Positions 2,026 to 18,301 of a stretch of 23,908 bases of DNA are shown here, piece by piece. Origin of the DNA: Gemmatimonadota bacterium (GTDB lineage: Bacteria > Gemmatimonadota > Gemmatimonadetes > Gemmatimonadales > GWC2-71-9); contig QHTZ01000107.1 in the NCBI GenBank assembly GCA_003221005.1, positions 1 through 23,908 on the forward strand, written 5' to 3'. Numbering within the stretch: the first letter of the stretch is position 1; every line of letters begins with the position of its first letter. Under the pieces are notes generated by a model. That model worked only from the letters and a program-made list of their open reading frames with translations. It did no database searches and was not told the origin of the DNA. The position numbers and the translations under genes are program-made.

Positions 2026-2038
2026 GGAGCGTCTCCCT

Positions 2039-2770
2039 CTATTTCGCCGTGAAGGTCAAGTCCGCCGTCTTCGTCTCCGCCGCCTTCACCGTCACCGTCG
2101 CCGTCTGCGTGCCGTACTTCTCATGCCACGCCTCGATCGTATACGTCCCCGGGGGAAGGCCCTTGATGCTGTAGCTGCCGTCCGTGCCGGTCGCAGAATA
2201 GAAGGGATGCGATAGCACGCCGGCAAAGGCGTGCATCCACCCGTGCACGTTGCACGCGAACGGCAGCATCACCTCGACCGCCGCAAATCCCGGCCGGTTG
2301 GTGGTCATGGTCGTGGGCTGGCTGATGTTGAACGGCCGGTTCTTCTTGCCCAGCGCCTTGATGTTGTGGAGGATCCCGTCGCTGTTCTTGATCGCGAGCG
2401 TCTGGCCGACCATGATCCCAAACACCCTGGGATGGTACATGCAGCCGTTCTGATCGATCTCCACGGGGGTGGCGGGCGTCGGGTACTTGGCGTCGGCCGG
2501 GAGCCCCGTCTTCACGTACACGAACACGTTTGCCAGCGTGCCGTTGGCGTTGACCTGGACGATGAGCTCGCGGGGCGGCGTGGTGTACTTCGCCGCGCAC
2601 TTGGCCTCCTCGCTCATGTCGATGACCGGGTTCGCCGGCGCCTTGCCGACGAACTTTACTTTCCCCGTCACCGTGGCGCCGTCGAGCGCGGCCTCCGCGC
2701 CCGGGGTGCTCCCCAAGGCCCACACCAGGAGACCAGCCCCGATCGCCGCCGCCGAACCGAGTTTACGCAT
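2039..2770 (-). CDS. Exported cupredoxin-like protein with C-terminal carboxypeptidase-regulatory-like beta-sandwich
   Basis: Signal peptide ending near AEAA; type-1-copper-like ligands NSDGILHN...CNVHGWM; C-terminal TDGSYSIKGLPPGTYTIEAWHE. SD GGAGG upstream. Confidence 0.8.
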   Translation of the reverse strand: MRKLGSAAAIGAGLLVWALGSTPGAEAALDGATVTGKVKFVGKAPANPVIDMSEEAKCAAKYTTPPRELIVQVNANGTLANVFVYVKTGLPADAKYPTPATPVEIDQNGCMYHPRVFGIMVGQTLAIKNSDGILHNIKALGKKNRPFNISQPTTMTTNRPGFAAVEVMLPFACNVHGWMHAFAGVLSHPFYSATGTDGSYSIKGLPPGTYTIEAWHEKYGTQTATVTVKAAETKTADLTFTAK

Positions 2771-2823
2771 CGTCCCTCCTCAGAGAGGATTCCCGCCCGG
2801 ACGGAACTTCCGGCCGGTGCCGC

Positions 2824-4395
2824 TTACCCTCGCGCCGCAGCCCGCCTGCCGTCACGGCGCTGCGCCCGCACCACCACCAGCATCCCCAGCCCCAAGGTCA
2901 CCACCATCGCGATCACCGGAGAGATGAAGGTCCCGGGCGGCGTCGGCTGGTCCAGGGCGAGGAAGTACCAGGTACTCAGCGCCATCCGCGTATCGCGCTC
3001 CGCGCTCGAGCCGTCCCACGCGAAGAACGCCACGGGGATGGCCCGGCCCACGGCGAACTGAAGTTCGTTCGCCGTATCGGCGGTCGCAAGGGTACGGGTG
3101 AAGACCACCCGCCACTGGCCGTGGTCCCACACCGCCCGCGCCGCCGGTCCGCTCGCGGGCGGCAGGGTGTCGAAGCGGTCGATTCCCCGGGCGAGGCCCG
3201 CCACTGCGCCCCGCGGCGCGCTGCGCCAGCGCCACTGGTAGACGGACCCCGAGTTCGACCCCATCAGGAAGTACGGCCGCTCCATCCCCTCGGGGATCTT
3301 CGGCGGAAACTGCACGGCCAGCTGATCGGGCCACGGCGCTAGGGTCTGCGGCCCCGAATCGTCGCTCGCCATCGTCTGGAGCAGTCGCCGCGTGTACTTG
3401 TTCCATCCTGTATCCGGGCTCTGCGAGCGGTCGTCCCAGGTGAGCCGCACCGCGATCGCGTTGCCGTTGTGCAGCGCCTGCACCCAGATCGCCGCCACCG
3501 CGGGCGCGAACCAACGCGGCTTGCGGATGATCTGGCCAACGAGCGGGAAGTAGTAGTCATCCACGCGGCTCCAGGCGGAGTCGTCTGGGGACACGGGCAG
3601 CGTGCCCGCGATCTGGCGCGCGTGAATCACATCCCGCACCTCGGGCGCCTTGGGCGGCGACAGGCTGCGCACGTACTGCGCCACCCGCCACAGTTGCTCC
3701 TCGGTGAGGAACTTCTGGTCGAGCAGGTCGGAGAACGACGGCATCGGCGTGCCGTCGAGCCCGGTCCGCAGCTGGCGGTAAATGTCTTCCGCCGTCGCGC
3801 CGCCGCGGAAGCGCCAGTTTTCGTGGAGGTCGGCTGCCAAGATCGGCTGCCCGGGATCGTCCTTGAGATCGGGGGCCGAGGGCCCATCGCCGCGCCCCTG
3901 GGGGCCGTGACACTTATAGCAATGGATCGAATCGTAGAACTGCCGCCCGACCCGGAGGGCTTCGGCACCCGTGCCACCGCCCGGCTCGCTCGAGAACTTG
4001 AGCAGCTGCGGGTGCTGGCTCGTGTCGCTGAAAAAAGACGAGAACGTCTTGAGGTACGCCATCACGTTGCGGCGCTCGCCGTCCGAGAGCCGCGTCTGCC
4101 ACGCGGGCATGGCGGTGCCGGGGAGCCCTTCGTCGATGGCGCGCATGAGGTCCGCGTCCGTGGGGAGCTGGCCGCTCGCAGTGGTGCGGATCTTGTAAAC
4201 TGCGCCGGTGAAGTCGCGGGGCCGCGGCAGCATGTACAGCGCGGCCACGCCCTTGCCGTCCCCGGTCTCCCCGTGGCAGCCGGCGCACCATTTCACATAG
4301 ACGGTCTTGCCGGCGGTGGTGTCTTGGGCGGACAGTCGCACAGTCGGACTGACGGACAGAAACACCGCCAGCGCGCCTATCAGTCCGACCCTCAT
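2824..4395 (-). CDS. Diheme cytochrome c fused to an ethylbenzene dehydrogenase gamma-like (EbdC/DOMON-type) heme b domain, with C-terminal TM anchor
   Basis: Start moved to ATG 4395 (MRVGLIG signal peptide, ATGA overlap). CAGCH...GLPGTAMP and CYKCH...GLDGTPMP; then RLTWDD, DQLAVQFP, YFLMG, WRVVFTR, AFFAWDG...ER...STWY; terminal TM helix. Confidence 0.85.
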   Translation of the reverse strand: MRVGLIGALAVFLSVSPTVRLSAQDTTAGKTVYVKWCAGCHGETGDGKGVAALYMLPRPRDFTGAVYKIRTTASGQLPTDADLMRAIDEGLPGTAMPAWQTRLSDGERRNVMAYLKTFSSFFSDTSQHPQLLKFSSEPGGGTGAEALRVGRQFYDSIHCYKCHGPQGRGDGPSAPDLKDDPGQPILAADLHENWRFRGGATAEDIYRQLRTGLDGTPMPSFSDLLDQKFLTEEQLWRVAQYVRSLSPPKAPEVRDVIHARQIAGTLPVSPDDSAWSRVDDYYFPLVGQIIRKPRWFAPAVAAIWVQALHNGNAIAVRLTWDDRSQSPDTGWNKYTRRLLQTMASDDSGPQTLAPWPDQLAVQFPPKIPEGMERPYFLMGSNSGSVYQWRWRSAPRGAVAGLARGIDRFDTLPPASGPAARAVWDHGQWRVVFTRTLATADTANELQFAVGRAIPVAFFAWDGSSAERDTRMALSTWYFLALDQPTPPGTFISPVIAMVVTLGLGMLVVVRAQRRDGRRAAARG

Positions 4396-5192
4396 TTCGC
4401 ACCGCCTTCGGCCTTCTCCCACGTCCGCGGCTTCCACCCGGTCTGATCGTACAGGAATAGGATCACCGCCCAGATCTGGCGCTCCGTGAGGAAGTCTTCC
4501 CAGCGCGGCATCGCCGAGTTCCAGGGCGTGCCCTCACGCGGCAGACCGGGCCCGCCCTTCGCAACCCGCCAGAAGACGAAGCTCTCGGTGAGCTGGGCGA
4601 TGGTCCCATTGTCCTGGAAGTTGGCTGGCAGCGGATTGAAACCGGCCGCGAAGTGTCCCAGACCATCCAAGTGATCCCCGTGACAGGGCAGGCAGTTCTG
4701 GTAGTAGATCTCCTTGCCGTAGGCCGTAAACGCGGCGAGCGACTCGGGCTGCTGGCGCAGCGGATTCTCGAGCCCGGTGAGCGTCATTGTCTTGCCGCGG
4801 AACGTGACCTCGGCGGGCGGCGCCGGATGGATCGAACGCAGGTTGGGGGGCGCCGCGACCGTCGTGCGCACCTGCCCGAACGTGACCCAGCCGACGAGCA
4901 GCGTGACGACCGCGAGCACCAGGATGCGCACGAGCCGCAGTCGCTGCTCGACCAGCATCGCCACGAGCGGCTGCTTGAAGAGCGCCCAGCGCTCATCGTT
5001 GTCGCTCACGTAAATCAGCACGCCGACTAGCACCGTGACCATGTACTGCAGCACGACGCTGCTCGGAACGAGCGAGCTGCCTGGCAGCAATGGCACCCCG
5101 TAGACGATGACGAGATACGCCAGCACCAGCAGCCCCAGGGCCTGCCAGAAGGGGTGGTCCAGGTAGCGCCGGAGGTTGGGCGAACGCGTCAT
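4392..5192 (-). CDS. Membrane-anchored monoheme cytochrome c (three N-terminal TM helices)
   Basis: Three hydrophobic segments, then CLPCH and distal Met in WNSAMP; coupled to both neighbours. Confidence 0.88.
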   Translation of the reverse strand: MTRSPNLRRYLDHPFWQALGLLVLAYLVIVYGVPLLPGSSLVPSSVVLQYMVTVLVGVLIYVSDNDERWALFKQPLVAMLVEQRLRLVRILVLAVVTLLVGWVTFGQVRTTVAAPPNLRSIHPAPPAEVTFRGKTMTLTGLENPLRQQPESLAAFTAYGKEIYYQNCLPCHGDHLDGLGHFAAGFNPLPANFQDNGTIAQLTESFVFWRVAKGGPGLPREGTPWNSAMPRWEDFLTERQIWAVILFLYDQTGWKPRTWEKAEGGAK

Positions 5193-6001
5193 TTGTGCCC
5201 CGCGAGGTATTGTACCAGCGCGTCGAGCTGGGCCGGGCTCATCATCGTCGCGAAGTTCTTCGGCATCACGCCGGCAAGGTTCTCAAAACCCTTCGTGATC
5301 GACGATCCCGGATCCACGATCTTCTGCCGGATCGACTGGGCGTCACGGCGCGAGCCGACGTGGGTCAGGTCGGGCGCCAGGGCTCCCCCCTGGCCGTCGA
5401 GCATGTGGCAGTTGACGCACCCGGCCTCTTTGATGATTGCCTTGGGATCGCTGCTCCCATGGGCGAAACCGCCACCCCCGCCACCCCCGCCACCCCCTGC
5501 CGCAGCGGCCCCTCCCCCGCCGGCCGGCGCCGCCTTCTGGATGTCGGCCCCCGTCACGTCCACCGTGCCCCCCTGCGACTCGAGGAACGCGATCACGGCC
5601 CAGACCTGGTCGGGCGGGATCAGCTTCGTAACCTGCGGCATGATGGGCTGGTAGCCAGCCACGACGTACGCCGTAGGCTGATCGAGGGACTCGTAGAGGT
5701 ACTGCTTGCAGCTCTTCCCCGGCTCGCGCTTGGCGCAGCGTTGGCCGATCGGCCCTGTTCCCTTCTCGTCCGTGAGCAGGTTCGGGGCGCGGGTGCCGAG
5801 GCCGTGACAGGCGACGCAGCCGCCGATGCCGTTGAACACCTTCTCCCCGGCGGCCACCAACTGCTCCGGCGTCGCGTTGGGACCGAGCGTGAGCTTCTGC
5901 GGCACTTCGGACTGCATCTGCGGGATCTTGTTGCAGATGACCGTATACACAAACAGCGTGCCGAGGACGATGCCGACGACCTTGAGGTTAGTGGCCCACA
6001 T
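5189..6001 (-). CDS. Membrane-anchored diheme cytochrome c with Gly/Ala-rich linker
   Basis: N-terminal TM; CVACH...PIMP; poly-Gly linker; CVNCH...APDLTHVG...GVMP. Confidence 0.9.
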   Translation of the reverse strand: MWATNLKVVGIVLGTLFVYTVICNKIPQMQSEVPQKLTLGPNATPEQLVAAGEKVFNGIGGCVACHGLGTRAPNLLTDEKGTGPIGQRCAKREPGKSCKQYLYESLDQPTAYVVAGYQPIMPQVTKLIPPDQVWAVIAFLESQGGTVDVTGADIQKAAPAGGGGAAAAGGGGGGGGGGFAHGSSDPKAIIKEAGCVNCHMLDGQGGALAPDLTHVGSRRDAQSIRQKIVDPGSSITKGFENLAGVMPKNFATMMSPAQLDALVQYLAGHK

Positions 6002-7700
6002 GCCGGCCTCCGCCCTCGCCTGACGACACGAACGTCGACTTCTCGGCGAGCCCGCCGAGCCAGAAGACGAACGCCACGAGACCGAGGAAGATCAGCACAC
6101 ACAGGCTGATCATCTGCGACGCGTACCCGAGCGCCGGGGTCGCGGCGTACTTGCTCGTGTCCTCCATCACCTGCCACACGTGCCAGTACTGGCGGATCCC
6201 GGAGCGGGCAAAGCCCATGAGTCCCATGAGCCAGGTGAACGTCACCGCGAGGATGAAGAGCGCATACTGGGAGCGCGGCGGCATCTTGCCCCACTGGATC
6301 TCCCCCACGGACTTAGCGCCCCGCGCCATGAGGACGTCGATCACGGTGACGAACAGGATGCAGCTCAACACGGCGAGCACCTGGTAGACGCTGAATCCGA
6401 TGCGCACGATCGCTTCGACGAAGTAACCCCGGATCCCGTAGAACAGCACGATCCCGGCCGCGATGACGAACATCGCCGTCTGGATGCGCGTCCCCGTCTC
6501 CGCCCAAGGGACGACGAGCTCCTTGTTGCCGCGCCGGTACATGAGGAACGACAGGAACGTGGTCAGGATCATCAGATTGACCGCCGTGTTCTTGGCGCTC
6601 ATGACGCCGAGGGCGCCGAGCAGCGGGTGGTGTGAGCCACCCATAGCGGCGAGCTCCTTCGAGTCCGCGATCATGGTGTGCGGCGTGCCCCACACGATCG
6701 CGCCCAGCACGAGGACCGTTAGCAGGTACTTGATGTAGGGGCGGAACCGTTCAGCGCCGGGGATGCGCCCCATGCCGATCCACAGGTAGTAGTTGCCGGC
6801 GAGGAACAGGACGGCGATGAGGAACGCCTGGATCACCCACAGCCAGCTCATGAAGCCGCCCATCATGGTGATCCCCATCGACTGGTCGTACTGGTACACC
6901 TCGCGGCCCAGCCAGTAGCCAGCGAAGGGCAGCACGATCAACGCGGAGATCGCGATGAAGTTGCCGACGTAGCCCATCCAGTCGTAGTGGGCGCGCTCCT
7001 CGTCGTTTTGGGCGGCGAGGAAGCGGTAGCTCGCGTACGCCGCGACAATGGCGCCGCCGAACACGACGTTCGCGATGAGCCGATGGACGTTAATCGGCAT
7101 CCAGGTGGCATTGGCGATGGCGTGCCACAGCTTGATGCTGCTCGGGTCCGTGGTGGAAGTGATGTCGCGCGGCGGCGTCATCATGTACGTCAGCCACGAG
7201 TTGGCGATCAGCATCACGATCGTGCCCCAGACGTTCAGCAGGATGCCGAGGGTCCAGTGGACCAGCTTGGCGCGACCGTACTTCCAGCGGTCCCACCCGT
7301 AGTAATAGAGGTAGAGGGTGAAGGATTCGAAGAAGAACAGTCCGGCGTACACCCACATGGAGGCCGCGAACACGGCCGTCAGGTACGCCCAGAACCGCGG
7401 GTACAGGGTTGCCAAGAAGAAGACGAGGATCGCCCCCCAGATCGCGGTCGCGCTGTAGGCCACGAGCAGCAGGCGGGTAAACTCCTTCGCGAGCCGGTCG
7501 TAGCGGGCTTCCTTGCCGAAGATCCCGATGGCCTCCGCCACCACGGCGAACATCGGCACGCCGAGCACGAAGGCGGCGAACATGAGGTGCACTTCCGCGG
7601 CGATCCAGACCGCCGCGCGGGCGCCGATGATGGGGAACTCGCCGTAGGCGCGCACGCTGTCGGCGGCGGCGGCAGTGAGGAAAAACAGACCGTCGGCCAT
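5988..7700 (-). CDS. Non-canonical cytochrome bd subunit I-like (CydA-like, 'bd-like') membrane oxidoreductase
   Basis: Polytopic membrane protein with CydA hallmarks: AEVHLMF (helix I His), FFFESFTLYLYYYGWDR, ANSWLTYMMTP, NVHRLIA (b558-type His) and IRQYW (variant of GRQPW). No recognisable Q-loop. Confidence 0.85.
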   Translation of the reverse strand: MADGLFFLTAAAADSVRAYGEFPIIGARAAVWIAAEVHLMFAAFVLGVPMFAVVAEAIGIFGKEARYDRLAKEFTRLLLVAYSATAIWGAILVFFLATLYPRFWAYLTAVFAASMWVYAGLFFFESFTLYLYYYGWDRWKYGRAKLVHWTLGILLNVWGTIVMLIANSWLTYMMTPPRDITSTTDPSSIKLWHAIANATWMPINVHRLIANVVFGGAIVAAYASYRFLAAQNDEERAHYDWMGYVGNFIAISALIVLPFAGYWLGREVYQYDQSMGITMMGGFMSWLWVIQAFLIAVLFLAGNYYLWIGMGRIPGAERFRPYIKYLLTVLVLGAIVWGTPHTMIADSKELAAMGGSHHPLLGALGVMSAKNTAVNLMILTTFLSFLMYRRGNKELVVPWAETGTRIQTAMFVIAAGIVLFYGIRGYFVEAIVRIGFSVYQVLAVLSCILFVTVIDVLMARGAKSVGEIQWGKMPPRSQYALFILAVTFTWLMGLMGFARSGIRQYWHVWQVMEDTSKYAATPALGYASQMISLCVLIFLGLVAFVFWLGGLAEKSTFVSSGEGGGRHVGH

Positions 7701-8977
7701 CAGCCGTCAGCCTCAGTGAAGAACGGCCGTCGCTTCGAGAAATCGACCGGTAGCGCGCTCCGAACCTCGGACAAGAGCTCCAGGGTCACCTCGCGCCCGC
7801 CGTGCCGTCGGGCGTACTCCTCCACGCGCTGCATCACCACGCCGCGTACGAACGAGGGAATCCGCTCGAGGCGCGCGAGCGCCGCGGGGCTCCAGCCGAG
7901 CGCCCGCCGGAACTCGGCGCCGTACGTCACGGCGCGCTGCGGCTCCACCAGCGGGGCGCCGACCCGCGGCTCGTAGGTGCACGACGGGTCGGCGGCGAGC
8001 ACGTCGCCGGTCGTGGCGAACGCCCGCGCCCGGCACCCGCCGCACAGCGCGCGGTACTCGCACACACCGCACTTGCCGCCGAGCGTTCCCTCGCGCAGCT
8101 GGCGGAACAGGGGGGCCTCGCGCCAGATCTCGCCGAACGACTGCCGGGATAGATCGCCCGCGACCTCCGGCAGGTAGGGGCAGGGCGTGAGCTTGCCGTC
8201 GGGCGTGATGCGGCAGTACTGCGTGCCGCACGGGCAGCGCGTCTCGTAATTGAGCACCGGCGACTCGGGATCGGCCGCGTGCACGTGCCGCATGAAGTGC
8301 GGCGCGCACTTGGAGCGCACGAGCATGGTCCCGCGGTAGTCGCGCTGCCAGCGCGCCAGGTCGGCGAGCACTGCTTCATACTCCGCCGGGGGAAGGTCGG
8401 AGAGCCCGGCGCCGCGCCCGGTCGGCACCAGGAAATAGCAGTTGAACGCCACGGCCCCTTGCTCGGCGGACCAGGCAACGAGGCGCTCGAGCTCGGCGCG
8501 GTTGCCCTTGGTCGCCGTGGTCTGGATGATGAAATCCAGGCGCCGCTCCCGGAGCCGGGCGAGCGCGCCCTGCGTGTCGGCGAGCGAGCCCCGACCGTGC
8601 CGGAAGTTGTCATGATAGGACGGGCGCAGCGAATCCACGCTTACCGCGACGCCGCGCACGCCCGCGTCCTGCAGCGCCGCGATCCGGACGTCGGTGAGCA
8701 AGGTGCCATTCGTCCCGACGACGACCGTGGCACCACGCTCGGAGGCATAGCGCGCGATCTCCGTCAGGTCCTCCCGGAGCAGCGGCTCGCCGCCCGACAG
8801 GATCAGGAGCGGGGCGGGGTTCTCCGCCAGGAGCTCGTCCACGATGCGCCGGCAGGTCGCCGTGTCGAGCTCGGCGGTGGCGCGCTCGCCGGGTCCCGCC
8901 GAGATGTAACAGTGAGCGCACTCGAGGTTGCAGCGCCGAGTGAGATTCCACGCGACGACGTGGGGCACGTAGCTCAC
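7700..8977 (-). CDS. Radical SAM/SPASM protein, AhbD/NirJ-like, with C-terminal PCP_red-like domain
   Basis: WNLTRRCNLECAHCY, SGGEPLLR, KCAPHF, SPASM cysteines CPCG...PCPY...CGVC...CGGC...DPSC; tail WSPAALARLERIPSFVRGVVMQRVEEYA...VT. Confidence 0.88.
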   Translation of the reverse strand: MSYVPHVVAWNLTRRCNLECAHCYISAGPGERATAELDTATCRRIVDELLAENPAPLLILSGGEPLLREDLTEIARYASERGATVVVGTNGTLLTDVRIAALQDAGVRGVAVSVDSLRPSYHDNFRHGRGSLADTQGALARLRERRLDFIIQTTATKGNRAELERLVAWSAEQGAVAFNCYFLVPTGRGAGLSDLPPAEYEAVLADLARWQRDYRGTMLVRSKCAPHFMRHVHAADPESPVLNYETRCPCGTQYCRITPDGKLTPCPYLPEVAGDLSRQSFGEIWREAPLFRQLREGTLGGKCGVCEYRALCGGCRARAFATTGDVLAADPSCTYEPRVGAPLVEPQRAVTYGAEFRRALGWSPAALARLERIPSFVRGVVMQRVEEYARRHGGREVTLELLSEVRSALPVDFSKRRPFFTEADG

Positions 8978-8978: not shown

Positions 8979-10961
8979 TCAGTCGCCTGCCTGCTCCCGC
9001 AACAGCCGCTCCACAGCCTCCTTCGCCTGTTCGGGCTTCACCCCTTTGAAGTCCACGGGGCACTTGCCCATCTTCTCCTCGATATCGCGGATCGGGCAGC
9101 GCGTGATCCCTTGCGCCTTCGCGTCTTCGATGAACGCGCGCATCTCGGGAGTCAACCCGTCCCGTCCTTCGGCTTCGGCGCGGATCTGCTTCGCGCGCAA
9201 CTCGGTGAACATCACCATCATCGTCTCGACGTCGAACTCGTCCGCCTCGATCATCTGCTGCTTGTTGTCGTCCATCACGCGGGTGGTGACGCGCCAGATG
9301 TCGTGGTTGCGGGCAAAGCGCTCCACGGTGTTGCGCGCGAGGGGCCGAGCCACGAGCGGGACGAGCTGCAGGCGCTGCCACGCCTCTTCGGTCCAGACGA
9401 TGGGATCGGTCGCGACGCGCGGCCGGCGGCTCACGGTGCCCGTCACGGGACACTTCGTCTCCACCTCGGCCGCGACCGGCTCGGCGTCCGAGTCGTGACC
9501 CTGGATCTTGGTCACCTTCAGCTGCTCCGTCGCCTTCACCTCCGCGAGCGCGATCTCTTCCGCCGTCCCGATCCCCATGATGAGCTGCATGTGGGTCGGC
9601 AGCAGCTTCCGGATCGCCTCGTCGAGCCACTTGTTGGTGACCGTCGCCTCAGCGCCGCCGGTCTGCTCCAGCACGTACTCCTCCACGGCGCGGCGCGCGA
9701 TCCCCTGCGCGAACGGGGGGACGCGGAGGATGCGCACTTCCGCCTCGGGCGCCCACGGCATCCCCGCCTGGCCGTCCTCCTCGATCCAGGGGATGTCTTC
9801 GGGACGGATCCCCACCGTCCCGGTGAGCAGCGTGTTGCAGGGGGCGATCCGCACCAGGTTTTCAGCCTGGGACCCGAGGTCCGTGCCCTCGATGCGATGG
9901 GCCCCGTGCCGCGCCAGCACGAGCAGCGACGGCTTGATCTCCTCGGCCCACTGCATGATCACCTGGAACGGCTTGCCGATCAGGATCTGCGTCTTGATGG
10001 GGACGTCCGGAAATTCCTGGGCCATCACCTCGGCGCGCTTCAGGTTCGCCTGGCAGAGCTTCAGCAGCCCCTTGTCGATGATGTTGTTGTGCAGCTCTTC
10101 CTGCTCCTCGAACTTGAAGACTTTGGACGCCTGGTACGACAACACGTCCTTGATGTTGTGGAACACCACATGGTGGTACTCCACGTCGAACGCGCTGCAG
10201 ACGTAGAGGGATGCGCCGAACGTCTGGGCCAGCTCGAGCGCGGCGCGCATCGCCTTGTAGCTGTAGGAGGAGCCGTCCACGCACACCAAATAGCGGCCGT
10301 CCGCAAGCGGCCGGTCGTCGCGGACGATCAGCACGTCCTTCTCGACCTCGCGCAGCACGCGCGCCACCACTCCGCCGAGCTGCGAGAACGGCTGCCGCCC
10401 GAGCCCGTGCGCGCCGATCGCCAGCAGGTCGTACTGCCGGCCCGAGGATCCCACGAGCCGCGCCGCCGAATCCTCGTCCTCCGCGATCAGCCGCCCGTTG
10501 GCGCCGACCTGCACGTCGCCGCGCACTTTGTCGCCGCCGTCGTACCCCGCGGCGCGATTGGGATCGAAGCCGATCAAGCCGGGAAGCCGGCCGGCGCCGC
10601 GGTTCACCTCGTTCACGATCTCTTCGTAGTTGATTCCCTCGAGCAGCTGGCGCGTCAACGGCACCCCGGCTTCCTCGCAGTGCTTCCCGAGCCGGTCGAG
10701 GAAGCTGTCCGCGATCAGCTGGAGGCCCTTCTCGATGAGCTTGTCGTGGATCTTGCGCTGTTTCTTGATCTCTTCGGCGGTCTGGAACCGCGCGGGCAGG
10801 CCGGTCTCGAGCTGGCGAAAGCGGACGTCGTGCAGGCGGGCCGCATACACGTGGTTGCCGATGATGCGGCCGTGCGACACGCGACACAACTCGATCGCCC
10901 GGTCGACGGCCCAATCCGAATGCTGCGAATTGTCGACGGGGGCGAAGATCTCGCGGTACAC
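8979..10961 (-). CDS. Tandem universal stress protein domains plus two PCP_red-like domains and a CP-motif tail
   Basis: Start reassigned to GTG 10961 (MYREIFAPVDNS, SD GAGGT). USP1 DLLAIGAHG...LGG; USP2 YLVCVDGS...LLVLARHG...LGS; two PCP_red-like repeats (WAPEAEVRILRVP, WTEEAWQRLQLVP). Confidence 0.85.
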   Translation of the reverse strand: MYREIFAPVDNSQHSDWAVDRAIELCRVSHGRIIGNHVYAARLHDVRFRQLETGLPARFQTAEEIKKQRKIHDKLIEKGLQLIADSFLDRLGKHCEEAGVPLTRQLLEGINYEEIVNEVNRGAGRLPGLIGFDPNRAAGYDGGDKVRGDVQVGANGRLIAEDEDSAARLVGSSGRQYDLLAIGAHGLGRQPFSQLGGVVARVLREVEKDVLIVRDDRPLADGRYLVCVDGSSYSYKAMRAALELAQTFGASLYVCSAFDVEYHHVVFHNIKDVLSYQASKVFKFEEQEELHNNIIDKGLLKLCQANLKRAEVMAQEFPDVPIKTQILIGKPFQVIMQWAEEIKPSLLVLARHGAHRIEGTDLGSQAENLVRIAPCNTLLTGTVGIRPEDIPWIEEDGQAGMPWAPEAEVRILRVPPFAQGIARRAVEEYVLEQTGGAEATVTNKWLDEAIRKLLPTHMQLIMGIGTAEEIALAEVKATEQLKVTKIQGHDSDAEPVAAEVETKCPVTGTVSRRPRVATDPIVWTEEAWQRLQLVPLVARPLARNTVERFARNHDIWRVTTRVMDDNKQQMIEADEFDVETMMVMFTELRAKQIRAEAEGRDGLTPEMRAFIEDAKAQGITRCPIRDIEEKMGKCPVDFKGVKPEQAKEAVERLLREQAGD

Positions 10962-11118
10962 CGGCACCTCGGACGCTAGGGTGCATGCCGGGCACACACC
11001 AATATCTCCCCGAGCCTGGATCGGGTTCGGTCCTATCGAGATAACGCCTGGTGTTATGCTCGGCCGCAGCGGCCGTCAGGCCGCCGCACGATTATCGAGT
11101 CTCGCTTACGCGCCGGCG

Positions 11119-11147
11119 AGTATGGCCAGCGCGGCGGGGCCTGTCAA
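11119..11147 (-). promoter_or_regulatory. Sigma70-type promoter for the USP-to-cox operon
   Basis: Minus strand TTGACA (11147-11142), 17-nt spacer, CATACT (11124-11119). Confidence 0.75.
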
Positions 11148-11150: not shown

Positions 11151-11408
11151 TTAAATCCCGACTCTACTCGGGACAATTTGTCGGCCGGTTTCGTCCCACA
11201 CCGTGATGGCGTCGACGGGGCAAGCATCGCAGGCGCGCAGCAACCGCTCCCGCTCCACTGCCTCCGGCTCGACGAACGCGGCGATCGAGTCTTCGTCCAA
11301 CTTGAAACCCTCTGGCGCGTCCTTCACGCAATCGCCGAACCCGACGCACTGGTCGCGGTCGATGACGACGCGCAGACCATGGACGACCCGCTCCACGAGG
11401 CGACTCAC
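11151..11408 (-). CDS. Monocluster ferredoxin, probably [3Fe-4S]
   Basis: GTG 11408 overlaps the upstream stop (GTGA); 85 aa; IDRDQCVGFGDC...ACDACPVDAI, with the second Cys of CxxCxxC replaced by Phe. Confidence 0.88.
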   Translation of the reverse strand: MSRLVERVVHGLRVVIDRDQCVGFGDCVKDAPEGFKLDEDSIAAFVEPEAVERERLLRACDACPVDAITVWDETGRQIVPSRVGI

Positions 11409-11857
11409 ATCCCCTCGAGACCGAGCTCCGCGCGGGCGGTATCCATGACCGCGGGCGTGATTTCGGCGATGCCGTGGTCCTTGGCGTACTCGGCGTAGAT
11501 CTTCTTCACCATTCCCCGCACGAAGCCCGGCACCTGCGACAGGCGCTGCTGCGCCTCCGCGGACCAGCTGGGGCCAGCGGTCCGCGCCTCCGCCCGCCCG
11601 CTCGCTTCGTCGAACGCGTCCGGTCGCCCGCCGGCGACGTTGCCGCGCACGGTCTCGAGCGGCTGCGCCGGCACGGTCCGCCCGCCGATCACGACGCCCA
11701 AGGAGCTCACGAGCTGCGTCTCGAATGGGTTGGTGAGGAGAGCCGTCACCCGGCCGCAGCTCGGGCACTTGAAGGCCGCGGCAAGAGTTCCGTCTCCCGG
11801 GAGCTGGCGCTCCTCGAACACCATCTGCCGGTCGCACTCGACGCAGAGAAATTTCAT
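11405..11857 (-). CDS. Zn-ribbon (CxxC...CxxC) plus PCP_red-like domain protein
   Basis: ATG 11857 overlaps the mrp stop; MKFLCVECD...FKCPSCG; C-terminal WSAEAQQRLSQVPGFVRGMVKKIYAEYAKDHGIAEITPAVMD. Confidence 0.8.
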   Translation of the reverse strand: MKFLCVECDRQMVFEERQLPGDGTLAAAFKCPSCGRVTALLTNPFETQLVSSLGVVIGGRTVPAQPLETVRGNVAGGRPDAFDEASGRAEARTAGPSWSAEAQQRLSQVPGFVRGMVKKIYAEYAKDHGIAEITPAVMDTARAELGLEGM

Positions 11858-12636
11858 AGGCGCGCGGCGAGCGTCTCCCAGACACCGACCGGGGGGTGAA
11901 ATGGGACGCGCGCCAGCACCGGGACCCCAAACTCCCGCGCGAGGACCTCGGCCGCGTCGCCGCGGAACTGATCCCCCATCATGTTCTCCACGACGCCGAG
12001 AGGGGTCGCGCCCCGTTCCATCGCCGCGCGCAATGCGCGCCGCACGGCGTCGCGCGACTCGGGGGTCGGGATGGTCACGGTCAGCACGGCCGGAGGGCGG
12101 TCGAGCAGGTCCGCGAGCTCCTCGAAGCGCGACAGCCCGGGCGGCAGGTCGACCAGCAGCAGATCGAGTGACCCCCAGGCCACGTCGGCGAGGAACTCGC
12201 GCAGCGCGGCGGCCTCCAGCGCGCCGCGCCACACGAAGCGGTCAGCGGCGGGGCCCCGAAACGCCAGGGGGCGGCCGTCCTCGAGCAGCAGGTCCATGGA
12301 AACAAGCCGCACGCCGTCCGCGCCCGTAGCCGGCAGCACCGCGTCTTCCTCGACGACCAGCGAGGCCCGCCCCGCATCGAGCAATCCCGCTGCGGTGGGC
12401 CCGTTCAAGTCGGCGTCGAGCACGCCGACCGCCCGCCCTCCCCGCGCGACCGCGCGTGCCAGGTGCGCCGTGACGAAGCTCTTTCCGACACCCCCTTTGC
12501 CGCTCATGACGGCGACCACGCGGCCCACCTGAGCGAGGCGCGCGGCCACGCGGTGGCGCTGCGCGCCGATCTGCGCCGGGAGGCCCGACGCGTCGGGCTC
12601 CGTCAGGTCTCGATACGTCCGGATGTTGAGTGGCAC
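11854..12636 (-). CDS. Mrp/ApbC/NBP35-family P-loop ATPase, cysteine-free variant
   Basis: Deviant Walker A SGKGGVGKS, DADLNGP, VWRG, WGSLDLLLVDLPPG, GVVENM. Confidence 0.88.
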   Translation of the reverse strand: MPLNIRTYRDLTEPDASGLPAQIGAQRHRVAARLAQVGRVVAVMSGKGGVGKSFVTAHLARAVARGGRAVGVLDADLNGPTAAGLLDAGRASLVVEEDAVLPATGADGVRLVSMDLLLEDGRPLAFRGPAADRFVWRGALEAAALREFLADVAWGSLDLLLVDLPPGLSRFEELADLLDRPPAVLTVTIPTPESRDAVRRALRAAMERGATPLGVVENMMGDQFRGDAAEVLAREFGVPVLARVPFHPPVGVWETLAARL

Positions 12637-12673: not shown

Positions 12674-13174
12674 ATGATCGACGAACTCAGGAACAAGCTG
12701 CAGGCCGAGGTCGAGCGGTTGAACCACGAGATCAACTTCGTCCTGCCACGGGAAATCGAAAAGGCGCGCGCGCATGGCGACCTGCGCGAGAACTCCGAGT
12801 ACAAAGCGGCGCTCGAGCGGCAGCAGTTCTCGCAGGCCCGCCTGTCTCATCTCCGCGGGCGCCTGTCCAAGCTGTCCACCGTTTCGGAGCACGATATCCC
12901 GCGTGACCGCGTGGGGTTCGGGTCCCGCGTCACCGTGCGGGACCTCGACACGAAGAAGAAGGAAACGTACGCCCTCACCTTGGGCGAGTTCATCGAAGGC
13001 GGCGAGGAGGACGGGGACGAGATTCCGGTGTCGATCGCGTCACCCCTCGGCAAGGGCCTGCTGGGGTGCAAGCGGGGGCAGACCGTGAGCCTCGCCCTGC
13101 CGGTGGGGAAGCGGCGCCTCAAGATTGTGCAGGTGCTCACGGTGCACGATTTGGCGGCCGGAGCCCCTGAGTGA
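12674..13174 (+). CDS. greA: GreA/GreB family transcription elongation factor
   Basis: ARAHGDLRENSEY with both acidic residues; VGFGSRVTV; SIASPLGKGLLG. Confidence 0.92.
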   Translation: MIDELRNKLQAEVERLNHEINFVLPREIEKARAHGDLRENSEYKAALERQQFSQARLSHLRGRLSKLSTVSEHDIPRDRVGFGSRVTVRDLDTKKKETYALTLGEFIEGGEEDGDEIPVSIASPLGKGLLGCKRGQTVSLALPVGKRRLKIVQVLTVHDLAAGAPE

Positions 13175-13298
13175 GCGCCTACCGCCTGACCCTGCCCACT
13201 TGACGAAGCCATTGTAAAGTGCCACATACGTTTGAGGTATAAGCCCGGCGCAACCCTAGGCGCGCCGGTACGTTGTGGTCACAGAGCGCGGAGGCCGA

Positions 13299-14120
13299 AT
13301 GGCGTGGCGCACCGAGGCTGAAGAAGAGCGTTTTTCGTTTACGCCGTTCACGCGGCATCCCTTCTTCACCGAGGTGAATCGCTGGATCGTCGAGCGCGTC
13401 ATCTGCCCCAGCCGCCGTACGATCGTAGACCTGGGCTGTGGGCCGGGGGCCGTGACCCAGCTGATCGTTGACCGCTTGAGTCAGTGCGGCGAGGGCCGGG
13501 TCATCGGGATTGACCCGTCGGCATCGGCGCTCGAGAAGGCGCGGCGCGCGATCCGGTCGCGCGTCGCGGAGTTCGTGGAGGGGAGCGCGGAATGGCTGTC
13601 GCGCCTGGTCCCCTCGGCCGATGCGGTCATCTTCTGTAACGCCATCCACCTCGTCCCCGACAAAGCCAAAGTCATCGCCGAGATCCGCAAAGTCCTGAAG
13701 CGCGGCGGTGTGCTCGCGTTCAATACGACGTTCTTCAACGGCGCCTACGTCGAAGGGACGACCGGCTTCTGGCGCCGCTGGGTGGTGCGCGCCGTGCAGG
13801 TGCTGCGCGAGCACGGCATCGCGGTGCAGCACGAGGGCAAGGCCACAGCTCGGTCGTTCCTCTCGGCCGACGAGTACGCCACCTTGTGCGAGCACGAGGG
13901 GTTCAGCCCGCCCACGGTCGAGCTGGTGCGAGTCGAGATGACCCCCGAGAGCCTGGAGGACATCGGACGCTTCTCCCTGTTCATCGAGGGCGCCTTGCCG
14001 GGCGTCCCGCTCGAGCAGGGGGCGGAGGCGCTGCGCGAGGGCTTACGGCGCGCGCTCGACGAGACCGGGTTCAGCACGGTACCGCGCAACTGGCTTGAGT
14101 GTGTAGCCGTCGCGTCCTGA
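13299..14120 (+). CDS. Class I SAM-dependent methyltransferase
   Basis: SD GGAGG (13290-13294) then ATG 13299; motif I IVDLGCGPG, IGIDPS, VLKRGGVLAF. Confidence 0.88.
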   Translation: MAWRTEAEEERFSFTPFTRHPFFTEVNRWIVERVICPSRRTIVDLGCGPGAVTQLIVDRLSQCGEGRVIGIDPSASALEKARRAIRSRVAEFVEGSAEWLSRLVPSADAVIFCNAIHLVPDKAKVIAEIRKVLKRGGVLAFNTTFFNGAYVEGTTGFWRRWVVRAVQVLREHGIAVQHEGKATARSFLSADEYATLCEHEGFSPPTVELVRVEMTPESLEDIGRFSLFIEGALPGVPLEQGAEALREGLRRALDETGFSTVPRNWLECVAVAS

Positions 14121-14123
14121 GCA

Positions 14124-15404
14124 TCACCCCAGCACAAACTCCAGACGTCGGTGCGCGTCGCGTAGCGCTGCCTCCACCTCCGCGGGCCCGGGGCCGCGCG
14201 CGAAGATGAAGCCCGGATAGCGCGCGCCCTCGGGTAGCGGCACGAGACGCTGCCCGCGGTGCGCCGTGATGGCGACGTCCTCGACCAGCGGCACGGCGCG
14301 CGCCGCCTCGACTCCTCGGAGCTCGCGCAACTCTCCTGCACCCGGCACGGGAATCATCATCACCCCGGCCGCCTGCCGCTCGCGCTCGAGCGTCGGCAGC
14401 TCCATCGCGAGCGCGTGGCGGATGATCAGCTCCTCGAGGGAGACCCAACCCTTTTCCGTTCCCTCGTCCCCGGTCCCGAATCTCAGCGCCGCGCTACACC
14501 GTCCGCCAATCGGACGGGCGGCCAGCTCGATGAGCCACGGGCCGCGCTCGTTGTATCGCAGCTCGGCGTGGATCGGCCCCTCCACCAGGCCCATTGCTGT
14601 CGCGGCCGCCTGCGTCGTCGCGGCGAGCTCGCACTGCGCCGCAAGGGCCAGGCGCGACGGCGTGACGTAAATGGTTTCCTCGAAGAACGGTCCGTTCAGC
14701 GGATCAGGTTTGTCGAACAGCGCGAGCACCGCTAGGCGCCCGCCCACCAGCAACCCTTCGAGCGCGAACTCAGGGCCGGGGACGAACTGCTCCACGAGCA
14801 CGCTGCGTGCGGACTCGCCGCAGGCGGCGACTTCCGGCTCGGCGAGGATCGCGGCGACTCTTCGAAACGCCGCGACGAACTCGGCCGGACTATCCGCACG
14901 GATGACCCCGCGCGACGCGGAGAGTTGCAGCGGCTTGAGGACGCAAGGGTACTCGACCAGGCGACCGAGCGCGGCTGCATCCGCGTCGGCTGGATACAGC
15001 GCGAACCGCGGCACGGCTACGCTCCCCGCGGTCCGGCCCAGGAGCTCGCGCTGCCGGTGCTTGTCGCGCGCCGCCAGCGCCGCCGCCACAGGGTTGCCCC
15101 GGAGCGTCAGCCGCTCGGCGATCGCCGCCGCCACGACGGCCGTGTTGTCGTCCACTCCCAGCACGCCGGCCAGCGGATGCTCCCGCGCGAACGCCGCGGC
15201 CCGAGCGGCTGCGTCCGCGGGAGCGGTGAAGTCAAGGGTCAGGAGCCCGGCCGGCTGGGCCTGCTCGAACGTGCTGGATCGCTCGGACGCCACACTGAGT
15301 GCGATGTCGAGCCGCCGGGCGGCCTCGACGAATGCCGTGGCCCGGTAGGTAGTGGACGGCAGGAGCAACAGCAGTCGCGGGGAAAGCGTGGAAGGGCGCG
15401 GCAT
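14124..15404 (-). CDS. ATP-grasp domain protein (substrate unknown)
   Basis: RDKHRQRE, YPCVLKP...SASRGVIR, LVEQFVPGPEFALE, IHAELR, LIELAARPIGG. Confidence 0.88.
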   Translation of the reverse strand: MPRPSTLSPRLLLLLPSTTYRATAFVEAARRLDIALSVASERSSTFEQAQPAGLLTLDFTAPADAAARAAAFAREHPLAGVLGVDDNTAVVAAAIAERLTLRGNPVAAALAARDKHRQRELLGRTAGSVAVPRFALYPADADAAALGRLVEYPCVLKPLQLSASRGVIRADSPAEFVAAFRRVAAILAEPEVAACGESARSVLVEQFVPGPEFALEGLLVGGRLAVLALFDKPDPLNGPFFEETIYVTPSRLALAAQCELAATTQAAATAMGLVEGPIHAELRYNERGPWLIELAARPIGGRCSAALRFGTGDEGTEKGWVSLEELIIRHALAMELPTLERERQAAGVMMIPVPGAGELRELRGVEAARAVPLVEDVAITAHRGQRLVPLPEGARYPGFIFARGPGPAEVEAALRDAHRRLEFVLG

Positions 15405-15413
15405 GCCGCGGCC

Positions 15414-16019
15414 CTACTTCTTGGCGGCGGCGAAGTAGGGGTTTGAGCCTGCCGAATGATCCGTGATGTCCACGATGCCTTTGACGCCCGGCACGTGCTG
15501 GTGCAGCATCGCTTCGATACCCTGGCGCAGGGTCACGTCGGCCATGCCGCATCCCTGGCAGCCTCCGCCCATCCGCAGCATCACGACGTGGTCTTGCACG
15601 TCGATCAGCTCCACGACGCCGCCGTGCCGTGCGACCATGGGATTGACCTGGGTCTCAAACAGTCGCGAGACCCGCTCGTACAGTTCGTCGTCGTCCGCCG
15701 GCGTGCCTGGGGGCGCTTGCCGGGGGGCGACCGCGGGCGCACGGGCCGCGAGCGCCGCACGGATCGCCGCGCCGACCGCCGGGCCAAGCGCCGCCCAGGG
15801 CGTGGGGCCGCGCTTCACGGCGGTGACCAGGTGACCCGACACGACGACCTCGGTGATTCCCGGGATCGCGAACAGCGCCTCGGCGAGGGGCGAGCCCTTG
15901 GCGTCCTCGGGCGACGCGAACCGGCGCACGCCGCCCACGTGCACCGGCTGGCCGACGATGAACTTGCAGCGATCGTTGTCGATCGGCTCGGCGGTGATGC
16001 GGACGTCTGCGGTGCTCAT
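15414..16019 (-). CDS. Nfu-type Fe-S carrier (Nfu N-terminal domain plus NifU-C domain)
   Basis: ATG 16019; SPLAEALFAIPGITEV; VNPMVARHGGVVEL...MGGGCQGCG...DITDH. Confidence 0.9.
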   Translation of the reverse strand: MSTADVRITAEPIDNDRCKFIVGQPVHVGGVRRFASPEDAKGSPLAEALFAIPGITEVVVSGHLVTAVKRGPTPWAALGPAVGAAIRAALAARAPAVAPRQAPPGTPADDDELYERVSRLFETQVNPMVARHGGVVELIDVQDHVVMLRMGGGCQGCGMADVTLRQGIEAMLHQHVPGVKGIVDITDHSAGSNPYFAAAKK

Positions 16020-16023
16020 GAAA

Positions 16024-18283
16024 TCAAGTATGCCCGGCCCGCTCTCGCGGGTCAACCGCGCGCCCCACGAGCGCCCCCGTCGCCGCCCGCATCTCCCGGG
16101 CCGCCTCGACCATGTTGCGGAGCGACGGCAGCGTCTCGGTCCAGCCGCGCGTCTTGAGGCCGCAATCCGGGTTGACCCAGATCTGGCGGTCGTCGAGCAC
16201 CTCCCGCATCCGTGTCAGCCCCGCCACGATCTCCGCGGTGCTCGGCACCCGGGGAGAGTGGATGTCGTAGACCCCGGGTCCGATTTCGTTGGGATACTTG
16301 TACTCCCGGAACCCTTCCAGCAGCTCGGACCGGGACCGGGCGTTCTCGATCGAGATGGCGTCCGCGTCCATCTGCTCGATGACGCGAATGACGTCGTTGA
16401 ATTCGCTGTAGCACATGTGCGTGTGGATCTGCGTCTCGTCCTTCACGCCGGCGGTCGCCAGGCGGAAGGCGTTGACCGCCCAGTCCAGGTACGCGGCCCA
16501 GTCGGCGCGGCGCAGCGGCAGCCCCTCGCGCAGCGCCGGCTCGTCGATCTGGATGACCCGGATGCCCGCGCTCTCGAGGTCCTGCACCTCGTCGCGAATC
16601 GCGAGCGCCAGCTGCTTCGCCGTCTCCGAGCGCGGCTGGTCATCGCGCACAAACGACCACTGAAGAATGGTCACCGGACCGGTCAACATCCCCTTGACCG
16701 GCTTCTTGGTCTGGGCCTGAGCGAACGTGCTCCAGCGGACCGTCATCGGCCGCGGCCGCGACACGTCGCCGCAGATGATCGGCGGCTTGACGTAGCGCGT
16801 CCCATAGGACTGCACCCAGCCGTGCTCCGTGAACGCGAATCCGTCCAGCTGCTCCCCGAAGTACTCCACCATGTCGTTGCGCTCGAACTCGCCATGGACC
16901 AGCACGTCGATCCCGATGTCCTCCTGTAGCCGGAGCGTCTTCCGGATCTGCTCCTCGATGAAAGCGTCGTAGGCGGCGGGCGTCAGCTTTCCGTCAGTCA
17001 GCTGCCGCCGGGCGGCGCGCACCTCCGCAGTCTGCGGGAACGAGCCGATGGTGGTCGTCGGGTAGAGCGGCAGCGCGAGCTGCTTGCGGCGCCGCGACGC
17101 GTACGGCGACGCCCGGCGCAGGTCTCGCTCGCCCACGGCCGCAGCGCGCCGCTTCACCGCCGGATTGTGAATCCGCTGCGACGCGCGGCGCGCCGCCAGC
17201 GCCCGCGCGTTGTCCTCGAGCTCGGCGGACGCGCGCCCGCGCCCCGCACCCAGCGCACGCGTCAGCGTGGCTACTTCGGCCAGCTTCTGCTTCGCGAACG
17301 CGAGCCACCCCCTGAGCTCCGCGTCGAGCCGCTGCTCGAGGTCGAGGTCGATTGGCACGTGGAGCAGCGAGCACGATGGCGCGACCCAGATAGACTCGGC
17401 TCCCACCCGGTCGCGAGCGCGCTCCAGCAGGGTCAGTGCGGCGGCGAGGTCGGCCTTCCAGACGTTCCGCCCGTCGACGACCCCGAGCGACAGGACCCGT
17501 CCCGTGCCCGCGGGCCACGCCTCGAGCAGCGGGTCCAACTGTCGCGGCGCGCGCACCAGATCGACGTGCAGGCCGTGCACGGGGAGCGAGACGACCGTCC
17601 GCAGGTTGTCGTCCAAGCCCGCGAAGTAGGTGGCGAGGAGCAGCTTAGCCTGCGGTACCCGCTGGGCCAGGAAGGCGTAGGTCTTGCGATACGCCTCCCG
17701 TTCCGGCTCGGTCCGGTCGAGCGCCAGGCACGGCTCGTCGAGCTGCACCCACGTCGCCCCGGCCGCCACCAGGCGGCTCAAGACCTCCGCGTACACCGGC
17801 AACAGCCGGTCCAGCAGCTCGAGACGGTCGAAGCGCGCGGTGCGCGCCTTTCCGAGCGTGAGGAACGTCACGGGCCCGATCAGCACCGGCTTCGTGGTGA
17901 TGCCCAGGGCCTTCGCTTCCTGGAACTCGTCGATCGGCTTGTGCGATGCCAGCCGAAACGCCTGGTCACGATCAAACTCGGGGACGATGTAGTGGTAGTT
18001 CGTGTCGAACCACTTCGTCATCTCCATCGCCGTGACGTCTCGGCCACGCTGTTGCGCGCCGCGCGCCATCGCGAAGTAGGTGTCCAGATCCACCTGCCCC
18101 CCACCCCCACCGTAGCGTGCCGGAACGGCGCCGACCAGCGCGCAGGTGTCCAGGACGCGGTCGTAGAAGGAGAAGTCGTTCGATGGAACGAGATCCATCC
18201 CGGCGGCGCGCTGCAGACCCCAGTGCGCCGCACGCAGCTCGCCGCCCACCGCGCGCCGCTCGGTCAGTGTGAGAGAGAGGCAT
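16024..18283 (-). pseudogene. metE: Cobalamin-independent methionine synthase, apparently frameshifted by a 5' internal deletion
   Basis: Body is intact (MTKWFDTNYHY, TTTIGSFPQT, HTHMCYSEF, WVNPDCGLKTR). ATG 18283 encodes MPLSHT in a different frame from the body, and the GFPRIG...RELK...YW segment is absent. The metE identity is secure; pseudogene status is less so. Confidence 0.72.
16027..16055 (-). promoter_or_regulatory. Sigma70-type promoter, probably giving a leaderless nfu mRNA
   Basis: TTGACC (16055-16050), 17-nt spacer, CATACT (16032-16027), 7 nt before the ATG; no SD. Confidence 0.7.
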
Positions 18284-18301
18284 AGGGAGCGGAATCTACC
18301 C

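Follow-up and report, generated by a model that had tools for sequence, protein, structure and literature searches.

What part might a tandem universal stress protein (USP) play when it ends in a tail with Cys-Pro (CP) motifs and its gene lies directly ahead of one for a radical S-adenosylmethionine (SAM) enzyme that resembles haem synthases? The question is raised by a 23,908-nucleotide stretch of DNA from a Gemmatimonadota bacterium (GenBank assembly GCA_003221005.1, contig QHTZ01000107.1, positions 1 to 23,908), analysed at its full length and referred to here as the window. The gene concerned, at 8979-10961 on the minus strand, encodes a protein of 660 amino acids, termed here the USP-PCP_red protein after its domains. 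A preliminary description of the locus, made from the sequence, had compared its CP motifs with those of haem-regulatory proteins and had proposed a haem sensor, chaperone or buffer. The reading favoured here, to which a probability of roughly 0.45 is assigned, is that the product is a nucleotide-binding accessory protein of the neighbouring radical SAM enzyme, which may handle a haem-type tetrapyrrole for an oxidase and use its CP thiolates as transient iron ligands.

Conservation of the Cys-Pro motifs

The gene and its parts are listed below, with residues counted from the GTG codon at 10961.

8979..10961, minus strand: gene for two USP domains, two PCP_red domains and a CP-bearing tail, 660 amino acids (open reading frame list, Pfam)
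10308..10961, minus strand: USP domain 1, residues 1-218 (Pfam)
10668..10841, minus strand: alpha-hairpin insert of USP domain 1 with the H44/H72 pair, helices 41-54 and 62-98 (AlphaFold2)
9798..10307, minus strand: USP domain 2, residues 219-388 (best Pfam stretch 237-391 of the 672-amino-acid open reading frame)
10020..10178, minus strand: alpha-hairpin insert of USP domain 2 with H263(H264)/H291, helices 262-271 and 284-314 (AlphaFold2)
9663..9755, minus strand: PCP_red domain 1, a partial match of 29.5 bits (profile positions 1-31 of 45), under the cut-off
9444..9455, minus strand: CP motif 1, KCPV (C504), in a beta-hairpin turn 19 residues ahead of the first Trp of PCP_red domain 2
9264..9395, minus strand: PCP_red domain 2, 42.2 bits against a cut-off of 32.5 (PF08369)
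8982..9260, minus strand: C-terminal tail of 93 residues, conserved in Gemmatimonadota
9090..9101, minus strand: CP motif 2, RCPI (C622), family consensus TRCPIRD
9051..9065, minus strand: CP motif 3, KCPVD (C634), family consensus CPVD followed by F, L or M

In the minus-strand translation, KCPV (9444-9455), RCPI (9090-9101) and KCPVD (9051-9065) are found exactly where the preliminary description had placed them. Each of the 120 database proteins most similar to it (at least 87% identity; Gemmatimonadales where named) keeps all three cysteines, although the linker just ahead of motif 1 varies. A broader comparison drew on 80 Gemmatimonadota loci from species genomes (64-90% identity), 68 of which gave one full-length orthologue of at least 990 bits, the remaining 12 being omitted as cut, split or shorter; together with the protein of the window this makes 69 sequences, one of which ends early, leaving 68 at C622 and C634. 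C504 was kept in 69/69, C622 in 68/68 and C634 in 68/68, whereas the other six cysteines were retained in 40/69 to 65/69. The Pro that follows was kept in 68/69, 68/68 and 68/68, respectively, the exception being locus L043, which has CA at motif 1. Loss of the motifs among orthologues had been named beforehand as an outcome that would speak against a role in haem binding; instead, the CP cysteines are present in every orthologue that has the site.

Conservation extends to the residues around the cysteines. The consensus reads [K/R/T]-C-P-[V/Y/F]-T-G at motif 1, T-R-C-P-I-R-D at motif 2 and C-P-V-D-[F/L/M] at motif 3; in motif 2, R-C-P occurs in 68/68 orthologues and is followed by I in 66/68, R in 67/68 and D in 68/68, and the C-P-V-D of motif 3 is complete in 68/68. 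K or R precedes the Cys in 56/69 sequences at motif 1, 68/68 at motif 2 and 42/68 at motif 3, V, I, Y or F stands at +2 in nearly all orthologues, and His is found at +5 of motif 1 in 29/69 and at neither of the other motifs. Motif 1 is conserved within an otherwise variable linker, its Cys lying 118 residues from the other two CP cysteines, which are 12 residues apart.

As a measure of background, a crude proteome of this bacterium's genome has Pro after 6.6% of its cysteines, the chance of at least three CP among nine cysteines is about 0.018, and at least three CP occur in 17 of 2057 open reading frames. For the motifs considered here, as judged by alignment, conservation is a stronger argument than this estimate.

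The structural setting of the motifs differs. In the full-length AlphaFold2 model, the mean predicted local distance difference test (pLDDT) score is 76.6 and the USP cores exceed 90; in a model of residues 470-660, the first 105 residues are confidently predicted (83-95). Motif 1 falls in a confident hairpin turn, the region around C504 scoring about 80-87 and the beta-hairpin packing beside PCP_red domain 2. The tail scores 34-61 across models, and motifs 2 and 3, with C622 and C634, lie in segments below 50, as expected for flexible or ligand-dependent segments. Pfam gave no family for the tail at E values up to 5.

Several other identities for the CP sites were considered and rejected. A fourth CP occurs only in the N-terminal extension of the 672-amino-acid open reading frame, outside the real protein as judged from the 660-residue form, the consensus start and the GAGG element described below. 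Selenocysteine at a CP site was dismissed, since the "1 TGA" recorded for four orthologues is the normal stop codon of shorter C-termini. The CPYT found in Longimicrobiales does not support a glutaredoxin-like site, as there is no thioredoxin fold or preceding strand and the motif stands in the variable linker. Finally, the CxPxR of anaerobic sulfatases does not match the C-P-x-R spacing found here.

A tandem USP core joined to PCP_red domains

The open reading frame on the minus strand, 8979-10997, runs from the first GTG (10997) and comprises 672 amino acids, which shifts residue numbers by +12; its stop codon is at 8979-8981. Initiation at 10997 is unlikely because an identical database protein has 660 amino acids (P0001), the orthologue consensus opens with MYREI, and GAGG stands 8 nucleotides upstream of the GTG at 10961. 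The latter is most likely the real start, as far as sequence can tell. Database sources label the protein only "universal stress protein", and Pfam searches of the whole protein returned Usp (6e-30) and PCP_red (8.9e-15). Exact pieces of 150-214 nucleotides (10370-10519, 10557-10707 and 8331-8544) occur in three soil metatranscriptome libraries from one study; these libraries contain only small shares of the window, their RNA origin alone is no proof of transcription, and no conclusion attaches to the parts without coverage.

The N-terminal half is a tandem USP. It matches the Usp profile (PF00582) in three stretches with 105.1 bits against a cut-off of 24, and its model, with core pLDDT above 90, matches the tandem USPs 3cis (E 8e-16) and 3ab8 (E 9e-14) in Foldseek, with template modelling scores by target of 0.70-0.82, as well as UspE. 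Identity to solved USPs is 14-18%. By comparison with Rv2623, TTHA0350 and UspE (Foldseek E 8e-16 to 1e-13), the protein shares the two-domain fold and most of the nucleotide motif, but it has in addition His-bearing alpha-hairpins in both halves, two PCP_red domains and the CP tail. The ATP-binding motif of USPs is G-x2-G-x9-G-[S/T]. Domain 1 has G-AH-G-x9-G-G, domain 2 has A-RH-G-x9-G-S in the Gemmatimonadota clade, and the consensus of domain 2 in distant homologues is G-x2-G-x9-G-S; the tandem core is putatively of the ATP-binding type. One orthologue, L165 (G153:C58:4575-6942), is interrupted in domain 2 by an in-frame TAG where the protein of the window has Q337, possibly a broken gene or a sequencing error.

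The two USP halves align with each other by BLASTP (E = 7e-10, 23% identity) with their His residues in register, and by this alignment they are an internal duplication. LHDVRF aligns with YHHVVF, and IHDKLIEKGL with LHNNIIDKGL. The matching helical inserts that the preliminary description had pointed out are thus real and homologous, and their His residues, which it had proposed to check in orthologues, are near-invariant in 52 sequences across phyla. Among these sequences H44, D45, H72 and D73 of the first insert are at least 90% conserved (codons 10830-10832 for H44 and 10746-10748 for H72, with D45 and D73 adjoining the respective His) and its R47, L55, P56 and Q68 are invariant; in the second insert, H263 (10173-10175), F267, Q287 and H291 (10089-10091) are invariant, with H264 encoded at 10170-10172. 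Judged by the register of the helices, the His residues within a pair should point towards one another. Pairs so close, which in domain 1 have Asp beside them, would suit a metal or a small ligand bound near the nucleotide pocket better than a bis-His haem site. Domain 1 also carries a clade-specific insertion at residues ~125-175 (window ~10430-10590, minus strand), with the conserved stretches LP.LIGFDPN...YDGG and a pLDDT of 45-55.

Between the USP pair and the tail lie two PCP_red domains. The preliminary description was right about the USP pair and the CP motifs but had overlooked these domains, as well as the same-strand genes upstream. The second belongs to PF08369 by its score, and its three-helix fold agrees with that of 2KRU (Foldseek root-mean-square deviation, rmsd, 0.9 over 51 columns; VIA Z 7.5, rmsd 3.1, 59 aligned residues). 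At the weaker, partial first match, the AlphaFold2 model has a three-helix unit at residues 405-453. A search of the ESM Atlas with residues 490-660 returned PCP_red clusters and nothing else, and fold searches with the C-terminal model likewise gave PCP_red matches only, although the low confidence of the tail meant that it was barely probed. The same small domain forms the C-terminus of BchB/ChlB (PF08369; stand-alone structures 2KRU and 2L09). In BchB, PCP_red caps protochlorophyllide. The present system differs from BchB/ChlB in that no dark-operative protochlorophyllide oxidoreductase (DPOR) is involved and the domain is instead fused to USP, radical SAM and Zn-ribbon proteins of a non-phototrophic respiratory cluster. 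Four PCP_red matches were found in the entire genome, all within this cluster and spread over three proteins.

A gene pair conserved across phyla

The genes surrounding that of the USP-PCP_red protein are all on the same, minus strand.

11854-12636, minus strand: Mrp/NUBPL-type ATPase, upstream of the USP-PCP_red gene (Pfam)
11405-11857, minus strand: Zn-ribbon-PCP_red protein, upstream of the USP-PCP_red gene (Pfam)
11151 to ~11408, minus strand: small ferredoxin, upstream of the USP-PCP_red gene (Pfam)
11119..11147, minus strand: promoter-like site TTGACA-17-CATACT in the gap ahead of the USP-PCP_red gene, a consensus match only
7700..8977, minus strand: AhbD/NirJ2-like radical SAM-SPASM-PCP_red gene, starting 2 bases past the USP-PCP_red stop codon (Pfam)
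5988..7700, minus strand: CydA-like (cytochrome bd-like) membrane subunit (Pfam, NCBIfam, synteny)
2-6001, minus strand: two cytochrome c genes, a dihaem c and EB_dh haem b protein, a CarboxypepD_reg-like protein, CoxB and CoxA (Pfam, NCBIfam)

The gene that directly follows is that of the radical SAM enzyme. Its product aligns over its full length, ~330 residues, to both NCBIfam models of radical SAM haem b synthases, with 292.6 bits for NirJ2 and 290.5 bits for AhbD (TIGR04545). Because both cut-offs are 500, it is a relative rather than an equivalog, and it differs further in having an extra PCP_red domain. Peptide-modifying radical SAM families score mostly ~75-150 bits on the same protein, and no other gene of the genome matches the AhbD model better. 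The genome also encodes ChdC and ferrochelatase (G000 contigs C56:689-1240 and C90:626-1498), so the AhbD-like enzyme is extra and probably has a dedicated activity; since these two enzymes make haem b by the coproporphyrin-dependent route, the cell should have coprohaem available, on which true AhbD acts.

Gene order bears out this association. In Gemmatimonadota, the radical SAM gene is next in 68/68 loci with room for it, a CydA-like gene follows in 61/62, and Mrp and the Zn-ribbon protein are found upstream in 65/67. The exception is L020, a locus of the Gemmatimonadota type whose record title reads Acidobacteriota; it alone of those with downstream room has no CydA-like gene. Of 201 genomes sampled from the phylum, 58 yielded the orthologue, among them one unpublished genome, G182; by genus, the count is 30 of 98. 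Beyond the phylum, 80 loci from Gamma-, Beta- and Alphaproteobacteria and Nitrospirota were compared (41-60% identity to P0166), and many of the Proteobacteria are sulfur or iron oxidisers by their record titles. An AhbD-like radical SAM gene comes directly next in 60 of the 67 loci that have room for it, and 36/80 have a CydA-like gene in their 8-kb flanks. The USP/radical SAM gene pair is thus conserved across phyla. The gammaproteobacterial radical SAM homologues (L081-L135, e.g. L083:10347-12377) are often ~670-700 amino acids long, as compared to 425 here, and the excess of ~250 residues is C-terminal.

An exhaustive search of cluster representatives found 3415 proteins at E <=0.001, 253 of them at E <=1e-30. 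All 28 of the longer relatives scanned have two USP domains followed by one to six PCP_red stretches, with rubredoxin-like Zn ribbons in nine. Isolated CP motifs recur in this wider family: in the PCP_red half, at least one is found in 57 of 68 complete distant homologues, and 77 of 169 cysteines precede Pro as compared to a Pro frequency of 4.6%, which is an enrichment of about tenfold. Of 71 such motifs, 60 sit 10-39 residues before the start of a PCP_red domain, as motif 1 does here (19 residues), and 40 are followed by Phe; some distant relatives carry G-x-C-P-[F/V]-x-H. When gammaproteobacterial sequences are aligned, the linker proves hypervariable except for a single conserved island, CPF, which is present in 17 of 19.

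The three upstream genes, for Mrp, the Zn-ribbon-PCP_red protein and the ferredoxin, overlap by 4 bases at each stop/start junction, so their translation may be coupled. The ferredoxin and USP-PCP_red genes are 153-189 bp apart, and the gap contains one promoter-like site, at 11147-11119, where 0.1 were expected from shuffled sequences. Given the gap and this site, the USP-PCP_red gene may head its own transcript, but it is not the first of the conserved set, and the earlier view of it as the first gene of an operon is uncertain.

Other genes of the window can be mentioned briefly. The CarboxypepD_reg-like gene (2039-2770, minus strand) accompanies genes for bd-like oxidases across phyla and is present in most Gemmatimonadota loci; in Proteobacteria the USP-PCP_red gene often has a homologue of it as its immediate upstream neighbour. 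From 12674 to 23472 the window encodes GreA, an ATP-grasp ligase, a NifU-like protein, MetE, an ECF-type sigma factor and an amino-acid permease, and no link of these to the system was seen.

Proposed handling of a haem-type tetrapyrrole, and its alternatives

The model proposed at roughly 0.45 joins these observations as follows. The USP-PCP_red protein would be a cytoplasmic accessory of the adjacent AhbD/NirJ2-like enzyme, the pair forming the core of a conserved module that may serve a cytochrome bd-like oxidase of the OR-N type. It would bind the substrate or product of the radical SAM enzyme, a haem-type tetrapyrrole such as coprohaem or haem, with the PCP_red domains acting as lids or docking units and the CP thiolates coordinating the iron axially and transiently, in the manner of haem-regulatory motifs. 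The cofactor would then move on in the direction of the oxidase, a step that binding of a nucleotide to the USP core might gate, and Mrp and the ferredoxin might supply the radical SAM enzyme with Fe-S (iron-sulfur) clusters and electrons.

A tetrapyrrole is suggested by the haem-type neighbour together with a domain otherwise known only from a tetrapyrrole enzyme. The earlier preference for a haem protein over a generic stress protein is partly supported by the context of the gene: an AhbD/NirJ2-like neighbour, three PCP_red proteins and a bd-like oxidase with c-type cytochromes. Of the roles then suggested, sensor and buffer are a poorer match than a partnership with the radical SAM enzyme, since the gene pair stays together from one phylum to another. 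Haem itself is suggested by precedent. The preliminary description had invoked the CP-motif consensus of the yeast regulator Hap1, which is general background. In haem-regulatory motifs the Cys of the Cys-Pro dipeptide is the haem ligand, and a distal His often takes part (PMC8808069); the CP motifs of haem oxygenase-2 (HO-2) are described as binding ferric haem through Cys and helping to load the catalytic site (PMC8808069, PMC2742820). HO-2, as described there, resembles the USP-PCP_red protein in having three CP motifs, of which two lie near one another within a C-terminal region that is flexible. The two have no relation in sequence or fold, however, and whereas HO-2 degrades haem, the USP-PCP_red protein has no known catalytic domain, is encoded beside a haem-synthase-like enzyme and is a candidate for haem binding only. 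The Bradyrhizobium regulator Irr carries the haem-regulatory motif G-C-P-W-H-D (PMC11442138). The motifs studied here share with those of Irr and Hap1 a Cys-Pro followed by a hydrophobic residue, and several distant homologues have G-x-C-P-[F/V]-x-H; Irr and Hap1 are transcription regulators, in contrast, and the USP-PCP_red protein has no DNA-binding domain and no His in its motifs. Moreover, a single Cys per protein, as in most distant relatives, can ligate haem iron but cannot build an Fe-S cluster alone. Strictly conserved as they are, the CP motifs are good but unproven candidates for holding haem.

Several observations weigh against this reading. A CP motif by itself is insufficient for haem binding according to PMC5758875; the His of the CPVDH form is missing from all three motifs, motif 3 having F, L or M in its place; and motif 1 lies in a confident beta-hairpin (pLDDT ~80-87) rather than in a disordered segment. 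The tail with motifs 2 and 3 is limited to the Gemmatimonadota clade (14 of the 150 representatives listed, all from the orthologous group) and is lacking in distant Proteobacteria. Among the 68 distant homologues, 11 have no isolated CP, the linker of two Sedimenticola sequences no longer contains it, and Nitrospirota forms have CPxC Zn-ribbon motifs in its stead. Because the homologues are related, counts of them overstate their independence. The CPVD of motif 3 is also a ligand context in the cluster's own ferredoxin, and three invariant Cys beside invariant Asp residues would suit an Fe-S or metal site as well. A complex prediction for the radical SAM enzyme with residues 391-660 gave a score of 0.00, with controls not run, and is neither for nor against binding.

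The points on CPVD and on the invariant Cys and Asp lead to the main rival, which is unlikely in its own right although better placed than the others: that the three invariant cysteines, perhaps with the Asp of CPIRD or CPVD, hold an Fe-S cluster or another metal, and that the protein assists the radical SAM enzyme in redox work or in the handling of clusters and is no haem carrier. Exactly three cysteines are invariant, each with Pro after it; Cys-Pro is the context of cluster ligands in the nearby ferredoxin (CDACPVDAI) and in another ferredoxin of the genome; the Gemmatimonadota cluster encodes an Mrp/NUBPL-type Fe-S carrier as well as a ferredoxin; and a tail so strongly conserved yet so poorly predicted would fit a fold that depends on a cofactor. 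Set against this, the cysteines have no CxxC or CxxCxxC spacing, and neither the whole protein nor the tail has a Fer4-type Pfam match, so that such a site would be unconventional and not that of a Fer4 ferredoxin. C504 is also far removed from the C622/C634 pair, the PCP_red half of most distant homologues has one or two Cys, too few per chain, and Mrp and the ferredoxin are already accounted for by the radical SAM enzyme, whose family has several clusters.

Considerably less probable is an ordinary nucleotide-binding USP regulator without a cofactor, in which CP is kept for structure alone. Such a protein would have the core typical of tandem USPs and would deserve the only name that its sources give it, but it would leave the invariance of three CP cysteines amid variable ones, the tenfold enrichment of CP in distant relatives, the fusion to PCP_red domains and the link to a haem-type radical SAM enzyme without a reason. 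More improbable still is a thiol/disulfide switch of C622 and C634 that informs the module of oxygen or of its redox state and that, when reduced, may or may not bind haem. The flexible tail does hold two invariant cysteines 12 residues apart, the CP motifs of HO-2 are described as forming such a switch (PMC2742820), and the module serves an oxygen reductase and includes an enzyme of an oxygen-sensitive type; the conserved Pro, the third Cys and the single-CP linkers of distant relatives would remain unexplained, however, and the protein has neither a thioredoxin-like fold nor a CxxC motif. SPASM enzymes often act on Cys-containing peptides. That the Cys-Pro segments are a target of the radical SAM-SPASM enzyme, either as a substrate for modification or as a tethering ligand to the open iron site of an auxiliary cluster, is the least probable idea of all, for although the genes are adjacent across phyla and one conserved Cys in a variable linker resembles a short recognition motif, the enzyme scores ~290 bits with tetrapyrrole models as compared to mostly ~75-150 with peptide maturases, and no leader-peptide-like organisation was seen.

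The accessory role in tetrapyrrole handling may also be stated in a narrower form, in which the USP-PCP_red protein would be dedicated to carrying haem or coprohaem, held by Cys-Pro thiolate ligation under PCP_red lids, between an oxygen-independent AhbD-like haem enzyme and the bd-like (OR-N) oxidase; so specific a proposal is doubtful. Searches of open-access papers and preprints on PCP_red, on bd-like oxidases with NirJ/AhbD or with radical SAM and USP, and on haem-binding USPs gave no description of the USP-PCP_red architecture or of a USP that binds haem, and a term search showed radical SAM and universal stress to be absent from a paper on evolution of the bd superfamily (10.1101/2021.01.16.426971).

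The bd-like (OR-N) oxidases are widespread, both in Gemmatimonadota of soil and in organisms that oxidise nitrite, sulfur or iron. A conserved partner with candidate ligand residues, three cysteines and two His pairs, would offer an experimental handle on the supply of haem to these enzymes, and the model is a first functional hypothesis for PCP_red domains outside DPOR. If the narrower carrier proposal is true, a motif of the haem-regulatory type would serve cofactor delivery, not regulation, in bacteria, and PCP_red would be a lid for tetrapyrroles more generally, beyond the synthesis of chlorophyll.

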